A stretch of DNA of 64,000 nucleotides from Escherichia coli (lineage in GTDB: Bacteria > Pseudomonadota > Gammaproteobacteria > Enterobacterales > Enterobacteriaceae): assembly GCF_024223415.1 (NCBI RefSeq), contig NZ_CP100500.1. One strand, 5' to 3'. Positions 29,640-30,767 of this stretch are shown piece after piece. The notes beneath the pieces were generated by a model. It was given only the letters and a program-made list of their open reading frames with translations. It was not told the DNA's origin and made no database searches. The translations under genes and the position numbers were made by a program. Every line of letters starts with the position of its first letter. Positions within the stretch are counted from its first letter, which is position 1.

Positions 29640-29660
29640 TCAGTAAGACGTTTTGTGAGA

Positions 29661-29685
29661 AGGGCCGCGAAAGCGGCCCTTTAGA
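29661..29685 (+). terminator. tktA terminator hairpin
   Basis: gggccgcgaaagcggccc followed by ttt; the same hairpin recurs at 29838-29855. Confidence 0.5.
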
Positions 29686-29689
29686 TTAT

Positions 29690-29835
29690 TGGTAAAGTGC
29701 GCGTTGTTCATGTCGGATGCGGCGTGAACGCCTTATCCGACCTACAAGATCGTGCAAATTCAATATATTGCAGGAAGTATGTAGGCCTGATAAGCGTAGC
29801 GCATCAGGCAGTTTTGCTTTTGCCATCACTCTCAA
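29690..29835. repeat. BIME / REP pair
   Basis: gtcggatgcggcgtgaacgccttatccgacctac ... gtaggcctgataagcgtagcgcatcaggc. Confidence 0.8.
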
Positions 29836-29858
29836 GGGCCGCGAAAGCGGCCCTTTTT

Positions 29859-30767
29859 TTACTTAGTAGAGATAAACGGAACTGTGCTGCCGGGGATCAT
29901 GGTATCGGGCAGTTTACCGTCCCAACGTTCGGCAGTGGTGAGGGCTACAAGTCCGGGATTATCCCGCAGAGCTTCACCGCGCAGGCGGATTGCTTCTGCT
30001 TCAGCCGCACTTTTTAAACGAATAGTTTCAGCCTCTGCCGCGCCTCTTACGCGAATAGTTTCCGCTTCTGCTTTGGCTGCCGCCAGTTTACTGTCTGCTT
30101 CTGCCTGGGCCTGAGTTACCGCTATTTGCGCCTGGATTTTCTCTGTTTCCAGATTTTGCTTACGCGTGGCAATGGCGACTTCTGCTTTCATTCGGTCTTC
30201 AATCGACTTTTCATAAGCGTCAGAAAAATCAATATTTTCAATCTGGACCCCGTCAATTACCACTGGCCCAACAACGGCTTTGCGCATGGCATTTTGCAGA
30301 TCCTGAACCAGTTTTGTACGATCCTGTACAGCGCTGATGGCGGTATATTGGCCGAAAACGTTCTCCAGTTGAGTTGGCAACTGACGGACAATCAGACGAT
30401 CTTTTAATGCTTCAATGGTGTTGTAGGTGGTATAAACCGCGCCTGCTTCTGAAGGTTTAATGTGGAAGCTGACTGATACTGTCATTTGTGCCGGTTGCTG
30501 GTCGCGGCTGTAGGCCTGTAATCCCTGATAGACCACAGCCTGATTACGCGTGGAAATTTTCTCCACGCTTTCCATAAACGGGATCTTAAAACCCAGACCC
30601 GGCTCGGCAACTTTTACGATTTTTCCGTAGCGCAGCAAAATGCCGCGTTCACCTTCATTAACGGTGTAATACGAGAGAAATGGCAGCACAACCACGGCAA
30701 GCACGCCGATGGCGATAGCAAGAGATTTTTGTGGGCGAAATGAGGTTAATGAAACAGGTGCTTTCAT
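29859..30767 (-). CDS. SPFH/band-7 (stomatin/prohibitin-like) membrane protein with a C-terminal Ala/Glu-rich repeat
   Basis: N-terminal TM segment SLAIAIGVLAVVVLPFLSYY, SPFH-like core, then AAAKAEAETIRVRGAAEAETIRLKSAAEAEAIRLRGEA. Confidence 0.65.
   Translation of the reverse strand: MKAPVSLTSFRPQKSLAIAIGVLAVVVLPFLSYYTVNEGERGILLRYGKIVKVAEPGLGFKIPFMESVEKISTRNQAVVYQGLQAYSRDQQPAQMTVSVSFHIKPSEAGAVYTTYNTIEALKDRLIVRQLPTQLENVFGQYTAISAVQDRTKLVQDLQNAMRKAVVGPVVIDGVQIENIDFSDAYEKSIEDRMKAEVAIATRKQNLETEKIQAQIAVTQAQAEADSKLAAAKAEAETIRVRGAAEAETIRLKSAAEAEAIRLRGEALRDNPGLVALTTAERWDGKLPDTMIPGSTVPFISTK

Follow-up and report, generated by a model that had tools for sequence, protein, structure and literature searches.

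The subject of this analysis is a hairpin that occurs twice, on either side of a pair of repetitive extragenic palindromic (REP) sequences, downstream of the transketolase gene tktA in Escherichia coli. The window analyzed was a 64,000-nt stretch of contig NZ_CP100500.1. In it, tktA converges with a minus-strand open reading frame (ORF) of 302 aa, to which the NCBI annotation pipeline (PGAP) gives the name "prohibitin family protein". Its match to SPFH profiles was weak (NCBIfam HflC/HflK, E-values 1e-16 to 1e-9, under the curated cut-offs). The two REP sequences between the convergent genes form a bacterial interspersed mosaic element (BIME). A first-pass annotation had noticed a hairpin on both sides of the REP pair, and we found that this is a genuine local duplication around the BIME. 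The features are listed in Table 1.

The repeated hairpin and the unit between its copies

The 18-mer GGGCCGCGAAAGCGGCCC occurred exactly twice in the window, at 29662–29679 and 29836–29853, and was absent from 100 shuffles of the window. The first-pass annotation had the two copies right and placed them 2 nt too high (29664–29681 and 29838–29855). The full direct repeat was 22–23 nt, AAGGGCCGCGAAAGCGGCCCTT(T), at 29660–29681 and 29834–29855, with a spacing of 174 nt. The stem, loop, and stem of copy 1 are AAGGGCCGC-GAAA-GCGGCCCTT, with a dG of −18.7 in an RNA fold of the last 32 nt. The loop, which is not palindromic, was the same in both copies of the window and in the empty tkt allele, which has the hairpin and no BIME.

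As had been noticed before, the run after copy 1 is TTT, and seven T come after copy 2. A terminator scan called copy 2 (29834–29855, then TTTTT; 9-bp stem) and did not call copy 1, which has the same stem. Copy 2 has the GC-rich stem–loop and U-tract of an intrinsic terminator, and the unit-free allele has six T; on the minus strand, no U-tract follows either copy. This hairpin is not the K-12-type tktA terminator, AAAAAGGTCGCTTCGGCGACCTTTTTT. Because copy 1 keeps TTT only and copy 2 has seven T, a fraction of the tktA transcripts is predicted to read through the REP pair and to stop at copy 2. In this strain, the segment after copy 1 starts with TAGATT (29682), the usual form being CAGATT, and this single change lengthens the T-run of copy 1 from TT to TTT.

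The stem of copy 2 ends 5 nt before the stop codon of the SPFH gene (29859–29861), and not 3 nt before it as had been stated; its T-run overlaps the codon by 2 nt. The hairpin lies near this stop because, in the unit-free allele, one hairpin sits between convergent genes that are 44 nt apart. The whole region of ~200 nt had an RNA minimum free energy of −99.8 kcal/mol with a z-score of −7.2. Being palindromic, the two copies could also pair with one another, which would enclose the entire region.

The segment between the hairpins (29682–29833) is 152 nt long. It has the order Y-S-Z2, which is that of a BIME-2, with conserved flanks. Y ends in CTAC and the inverted Z2 starts with GTAG, both being exact consensus matches, and the 35-nt S linker is conserved across 13 units. 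The first bases of the segment, TAGATTATTGG, differ from the consensus CAGATTG by a C>T change, and its last bases are CATCACTCTC. Its flanks are imperfect terminal inverted repeats (TIRs; CAGATTGTTGACAAAG...CATCAGTCTC): in an inverted-repeat search, CAGATTGTTGACAAAG paired imperfectly with CTTTGYCATCAGTCTC at the opposite end, and the arms including the hairpins were 76% complementary over 37 nt.

In genomes without the DNA around the prohibitin gene (the islet, described below), the best match to the segment was another locus, with 86–89% identity, and this match covered all the bases between hairpin 1 and hairpin 2. Since the segment matches elsewhere exactly from hairpin to hairpin, the whole of it is a discrete repeated unit. 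In an alignment of thirteen copies of the unit that spanned 152 nt, the ends were conserved (CAGATTGTTGACAAAGTGCGCG... and ...TTTGYCATCAGTCTC), and an nhmmer profile matched the tkt unit at profile positions 2–151 with a score of 168. Rfam recognized the BIME core alone (ES036, naRNA4) and had no match to the hairpins.

Table 1. Coordinates of the genes, hairpins, and repeat units discussed in the text (positions in the window)
Feature	Position	Strand	Basis and remarks
tktA (transketolase) ORF	27618–29639	+	ORF list; PGAP "tkt: transketolase" in a 100%-identical genome; stop TAA 29637–29639
Islet-specific DNA, in place of the ~236 bp K-12-type tktA–cmtB spacer	29640–31066		Alignments; in 1,818/5,426 genomes
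Hairpin copy 1, putative left target duplication	29660–29681		Repeat search, RNA fold; without full U-tract
BIME-2 unit, 152 nt, MITE-like (miniature inverted-repeat transposable element)	29682–29833	+	nhmmer profile and cross-locus match
Left flank ("A" side), left TIR, 30 nt	29682–29711	+	13-unit alignment, inverted-repeat search
Y REP, read as inverted REP (iREP) on the + strand, ends CTAC	29712–29745	+	Consensus match
S linker	29746–29780	+	Rfam ES036/CssrF (RF02751) at 29746–29788, 53.5 bits vs gathering cut-off 37.6
Z2 REP, inverted, starts GTAG	29781–29809	+	Consensus match
Right flank ("B" side), right TIR, 24 nt	29810–29833	+	Alignment, inverted-repeat search
Hairpin copy 2 and seven T, putative right target duplication	29834–29860		Terminator scan; sole consensus intrinsic tktA terminator in this allele
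SPFH/prohibitin-family gene, 302 aa, convergent with tktA	29859–30767	−	ORF list, PGAP name
Second example in the window, fbaA–mscS: hairpin, Z2-S-Y unit, hairpin	43468–43661	−	Repeat search, profile match
Third unit in the window	5073–5224	−	Hairpin GGCCAGCATTTGCTGGCC (5224–5207) 1 nt before the CAGATTG end

Other REP sequences were seen in the window. At 8339–8549 there is a tandem array of three copies of 87–91-bp repeats, each with a Y-like and a Z1-like REP, and its architecture is unlike that of the 152-nt unit. Two single Y REPs (25005–25045 and 26555–26595) lie 1.5 kb apart and have identical immediate flanks (gtgccattaat...cctacgttcg); they have the GTCGGAT...ATCCGAC stem variant, as in the tkt unit.

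Alleles at tkt and hairpin pairs at other loci

The prohibitin islet was found between tkt and cmtB in 1,818 of 5,426 complete E. coli genomes. Genomes without it have a different spacer of 236 bp with a different hairpin. High-identity homology with these K-12-type genomes ends at the tktA stop (29639) and restarts at ~31066. Both hairpin copies and the BIME are thus inside islet-specific DNA (29640 to ~31066), and the proposal that the islet boundary coincides with the duplicated hairpin was not borne out. The K-12-type terminator aligned to the islet-type hairpin region at ~58%, a figure that does not tell diverged orthologues from mere analogues.

At least one unit was present in ~1,213 of the islet genomes; the remainder of the 1,818, ~600, had none. 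The presence of the two-copy form in ~1,213 complete genomes shows that it is not an assembly artefact. At most 180 genomes had two or more units, as judged by the internal B-hairpin-A junction found only in multi-unit arrays; this count is an upper bound, since the matching can join pieces that are not colinear.

Across strains, the alleles form a series. The simplest has one hairpin and no unit, with 44 nt between the convergent stop codons. Two hairpins with one unit are found in the window and in an ST131 genome, whose two loops are no longer alike (AAAT and GAAA). A third allele has three hairpins and two units, and the three-unit allele comes from Escherichia sp. MOD1-EC7003. All junctions are in register, so that 0–3 units correspond to 1–4 hairpins. 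Both units of the two-unit allele have common locus-specific variants, which indicates that the array grew locally. The islet with the unit also occurs in E. whittamii and two further Escherichia lineages. Every unit number is represented among the islet genomes; to judge by these alleles, the hairpin duplication is therefore independent of the gain of the islet. In some genomes, the spacer between tkt and the prohibitin gene, which corresponds to 29640–29860 of the window, carries IS621, of the IS110 family, or IS1 (NZ_CM177019.1, NZ_CM180512.1). REP sequences are the reported target of IS621, according to a review, which makes the tkt BIME itself a landing pad.

The first-pass annotation had compared the site with one at fbaA, and we found the same architecture there and at many further loci. 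Between fbaA and mscS, the hairpin AGGCCCGCTCTGCGGGTCTTTTTTT lies at ~43468–43494 and 43637–43661, with a spacing of 168 nt, around a Z2-S-Y pair. The empty fbaA allele is exactly 168 bp shorter, has one hairpin, and is present in ~1,700 genomes. We use the term footprint for a hairpin at both ends of a unit. The third unit of the window (5073–5224), which lacks ~7 nt at its far end and any second hairpin, probably represents a decayed footprint.

Units were collected in two samples. In the first, a search of one genome per species with the left-flank motif of the unit returned 19 stretches, all of them from Escherichia, and a profile search gave 15 distinct sites. Nine of the 15 had the same locus-specific hairpin 0–2 nt from both unit ends, with repeat scores of 10–23 versus a cross-locus null with a mean of 5.9 and a maximum of 12. 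A stable hairpin lay 0–3 nt before the CAGATTG end in 14 of the 15 sites. The second sample was based on an internal pattern of the S linker and Z2, independent of the flanks, and comprised 27 distinct loci. Nine of them scored above the 99th percentile of the null (0.27 expected), or eight of 17 among the loci with both ends intact, and a stable hairpin adjoined at least one unit end in 19 of the 27.

Over both samples, the footprint was present at 16 or more different loci, three of them in K-12 (rlmC–artJ, yfeX–pbp4b, and fbaA–mscS). The unit ends, CAGATTG and CAGTCTC, are 0–2 nt from the hairpin and are conserved at most loci. The duplicated length ranged from 18 nt (rlmC–artJ) to 30 nt (yfeX–pbp4b) and tracked the size of the palindrome; no fixed stagger was seen.

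Filled and empty alleles could be paired at six loci: tkt, fbaA, aaeB–yhcO, yqjF–yqjG, rlmC–artJ, and yfeX–pbp4b. Every empty allele at these loci had exactly one hairpin, the pattern of a target duplication. A two-unit allele is also present at yqjF–yqjG, and the variation in copy number (0, 1, 2, or 3 units at tkt; 0, 1, or 2 at yqjF–yqjG) is that of a BIME-2. Two further sites, one in the yhaH region (L020b) and one near fbp (C17), were set aside, as E. coli genomes match one side only.

These pairs bear on the idea that the hairpin is a part of the mobile element that is carried between sites, or that the two hairpins are of independent origin. Every hairpin is rich in GC and has A/T runs, and a CCGC...GCGG core is common to some of them, as would suit a carried hairpin. 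However, their sequences differ by locus and yet equal the single hairpin of the empty allele at that locus, and the cross-locus repeat scores were at background. We regard this idea as extremely improbable, and the carried hairpin in particular as effectively refuted by the empty-site comparisons.

The direction of change could be argued from the loops at rlmC–artJ, which read AGGT in the empty allele and ATGT and GGTT in the two copies of K-12. Compared position by position, AGGT is ancestral to both K-12 loops, and a single crossover between those copies could not have produced it. On these loop sequences, the empty state therefore came first, and the filled allele arose by insertion with duplication, after which the copies diverged. 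At yfeX–pbp4b and tkt, the sequences are compatible with either direction. At aaeB–yhcO, all 5,282 matching E. coli genomes were empty and only Escherichia sp. MOD1-EC7003 was filled. This locus was rejected as evidence of polarity, since a comparison of two lineages with no third outgroup does not polarize the event.

In the paired copies of several loci (L007, L020, L003, and others), loops diverge much faster than stems, for example, ATGT/GGTT, GGGAAACT/AGAACCGCT, and AAAT/GAAA. This suggests that the stems are kept paired by selection or correction.

Decay was seen at ybhK–uvrB (ybhK/yvcK–uvrB). The E69 allele is hairpin, unit, hairpin, and K-12 is without the right hairpin through a deletion of ~20 nt. 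This decay means that one-sided hairpin sites can be decayed footprints. A third allele at this locus, in THO-008, has an unrelated boxC-like insert and one hairpin. In E. albertii, one stretch (L010, ~6934–7527) has a four-unit array in which the units are truncated at profile position 130 and are separated by AAACGCCTTAGCAGAC(A/G)CT linkers with no clear hairpin; this may be an older, remodelled array. At another site (L048), the right flank of the unit is AGGCCAGATTGAAATCTGACCT, in which CAGATTG is joined to AATCTG, so that both unit termini stand back to back, a junction that may be the trace of an excision or a coincidence.

Proposed insertion at a terminator palindrome and its alternatives

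We consider it likely, with a probability of about 0.7, that the two hairpins are a structure-defined target-site duplication that arose from the insertion of a BIME-2 unit at a terminator palindrome. The reading builds on what was observed directly, namely the anatomy of the unit, the series of alleles, the presence of the footprint at many loci, each with a hairpin of its own, and the empty sites with a single hairpin. From these we infer that the duplication occurred at insertion, that an extruded or single-stranded hairpin was cut at its foot, and what enzyme could have made the cuts.

The proposed sequence of events would start with one GC-rich palindrome and its T-run between the convergent tktA and prohibitin genes, serving as the tktA terminator. 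The non-autonomous 152-nt unit would insert at this palindrome and be joined at the hairpin base on each strand, and repair synthesis would leave the whole palindrome, AA-stem-loop-stem-TT, on both sides of the element. The palindrome size, with no fixed stagger, would set the length of the duplication (18–30 nt). Later, the module of unit plus hairpin would expand or contract (0 to 3 units) through recombination or slippage between the hairpin copies. Another way of cutting, inside the loop with completion of the halves by fold-back, was ruled out, as the loop GAAA is the same in both copies and in the empty allele.

The candidate enzyme is RayT (TnpA_REP), which would act on single-stranded hairpin DNA. 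TnpA_REP works on single-stranded DNA only, needs a REP hairpin with GTAG, and can act on both BIME strands; the C|T sites that it cuts lie within iREPs or in the linkers on the 5' or 3' side of a REP (PMC3333891). Both 3' ends of the unit carry such C|T sites (GTC|TC and ATC|TG), 25–30 nt from the REP of each strand. They are consistent with the published linker sites, though as sequence motifs they are not diagnostic of RayT cleavage. The rayT gene is present in K-12 and lies outside the 64-kb window. A link between the unit and the rayT REPtron was considered and rejected: the BIMEs at rayT in K-12 are of the Y/Z1 type with short linkers and no shared flanks, and there is no sequence link. 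Given the duplication at the 16 or more loci, RayT, if responsible, would act unlike its IS200/IS605 relatives. A wider proposal is that the 152-nt unit is an active or recently active non-autonomous Escherichia transposon, whose machinery recognizes terminator palindromes in an extruded or single-stranded state and joins at their foot on both strands, with duplication of the whole palindrome as the outcome. We offer it tentatively, at slightly less than an even chance.

Several points weigh against insertion with target duplication. Polarity is firmly argued from sequence at one locus only, rlmC–artJ. At tkt, the unit-free allele may be a secondary deletion, because the filled state is common to several Escherichia species. 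At fepA–entD, a complete unit has no hairpin at all, and several loci (C7, C12, and C21) have a hairpin on one side only though that unit end is intact. The fbaA duplication takes in the whole A/T run, which means that cutting is not confined strictly to the palindrome's foot. As to the enzyme, the IS200/IS605-type Y1 transposases, to which RayT is related, make no target duplication (PMC3333891; PMC2817692), and the BIMEs that flank rayT in K-12 are without the terminal flanks of the 152-nt unit.

The main rival, copy-choice or template switching, requires no transposase. A replication fork would be stalled by the terminator hairpin; the nascent strand would leave after the hairpin, copy a BIME-2 unit elsewhere, and re-prime upstream of the hairpin, so that the hairpin is replicated twice. 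The duplication would still be coupled to insertion. Hairpins are replication pause sites, and copy-choice of this kind accounts for a duplicated length that is variable and structure-dependent (18–30 nt), unlike the fixed stagger of a transposase. The empty fbaA site (CGCCAAAAGC) and the unit end (GCCAAAAGA) also have microhomology. However, microhomology-driven switching is expected to give ragged ends, and at most loci the unit has exact, conserved ends; nor is any donor-flank sequence brought along. We consider this explanation unlikely.

A different rival would place the second hairpin among the by-products of array dynamics rather than of insertion, through local tandem duplication or RayT "rolling" amplification of an existing block of hairpin plus BIME, followed by partial deletion. 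The tkt locus does have arrays of two to three units, published amplification models can sequester flanking DNA, and BIME-2 arrays are known to expand and contract between strains (PMC3333891). Amplification of such a block yields hairpin-unit-hairpin-unit, though, and not the hairpin-unit-hairpin of the 16 or more footprint loci. The outer junctions equal those at the empty sites, and this rival would thus have to assume another precise deletion at each locus. We judge it somewhat less probable again than copy-choice.

Relation to known repeats and possible meaning for REP dissemination

The unit shares with BIME-2 the Y and the inverted Z2 REP, the GTAG/CTAC ends, the short S linker, and the extragenic position at the 3' ends of genes; BIME-2-like elements are the source of the Rfam families ES036/CssrF and naRNA4. 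It differs in that the repeated module at tkt also holds a locus-specific terminator hairpin, a single unit being bracketed by two copies, and in that ~25–30 nt of conserved outer flanks act as TIRs, which the rayT BIMEs of K-12 are without. Bachellier and co-workers reportedly wrote in 1997 of "expansion/deletion within a BIME-2". The composition of BIME-2 and the variation of its tandem copy number between strains have been described (PMC3333891).

As in the REPIN/RAYT system (REP doublets mobilized by a REP-associated tyrosine transposase, a domesticated enzyme of the Y1 HUH kind), the unit is an inverted REP doublet that can be folded as one long hairpin. The copies of our unit are Escherichia-specific, few per genome, and have TnpA_REP-like C|T sites at both 3' ends. 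In contrast, IS200/IS605-type transposition occurs without target duplication, whereas here a palindromic duplication of 18–30 nt is the rule. The REPIN/RAYT literature that we searched described no target preference for terminator hairpins and no footprint.

The unit resembles MITEs in being short and non-coding, with imperfect TIRs, flanking direct repeats, and filled and empty orthologous sites. The duplications made by DDE transposases are short and fixed (2–14 bp), whereas the length here follows the target palindrome. Class C group II introns insert after intrinsic terminators, and with them the unit would share the preference for a terminator-like stem–loop as a harmless landing site. 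REP dimers inside longer palindromes are known from Anabaena, Thermomicrobium, and Halothiobacillus (Di Nocera et al. 2013). Palindrome-homing elements split or follow the palindrome, whereas here the entire palindrome is on both sides. We found no description of hairpin duplication around BIMEs in the full-text literature searched, in which some older key work was not covered, so that its novelty is provisional.

The tkt locus is by itself ordinary, a polymorphic BIME at a terminator shared by tktA and the prohibitin gene. REP and BIME sequences are the most abundant repeats of E. coli and act on mRNA stability, termination, supercoiling, and the targeting of insertion sequences (IS). In K-12, 584 REPs have been counted (Ton-Hoang et al.), and EcoCyc annotates 355 REP elements. 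The mechanism of REP dissemination was stated to be unknown as of 2021 (PMC8266576). The footprint accounts for a class of paired terminators around BIMEs and for the indels of 165–182 bp that the E. coli pan-genome shows at the 3' ends of genes. Its three parts, a terminator hairpin as landing site, a second copy of the entire hairpin, and exact ends of the unit, make the spread of these repeats testable. If the interpretation is true, many one-sided hairpins beside BIMEs would be decayed footprints, and RayT or another enzyme would work by a two-strand, structure-guided mode unlike that of IS200/IS605. The dissemination of REP and BIME sequences would then have its first sequence footprint and its first target-site rule.

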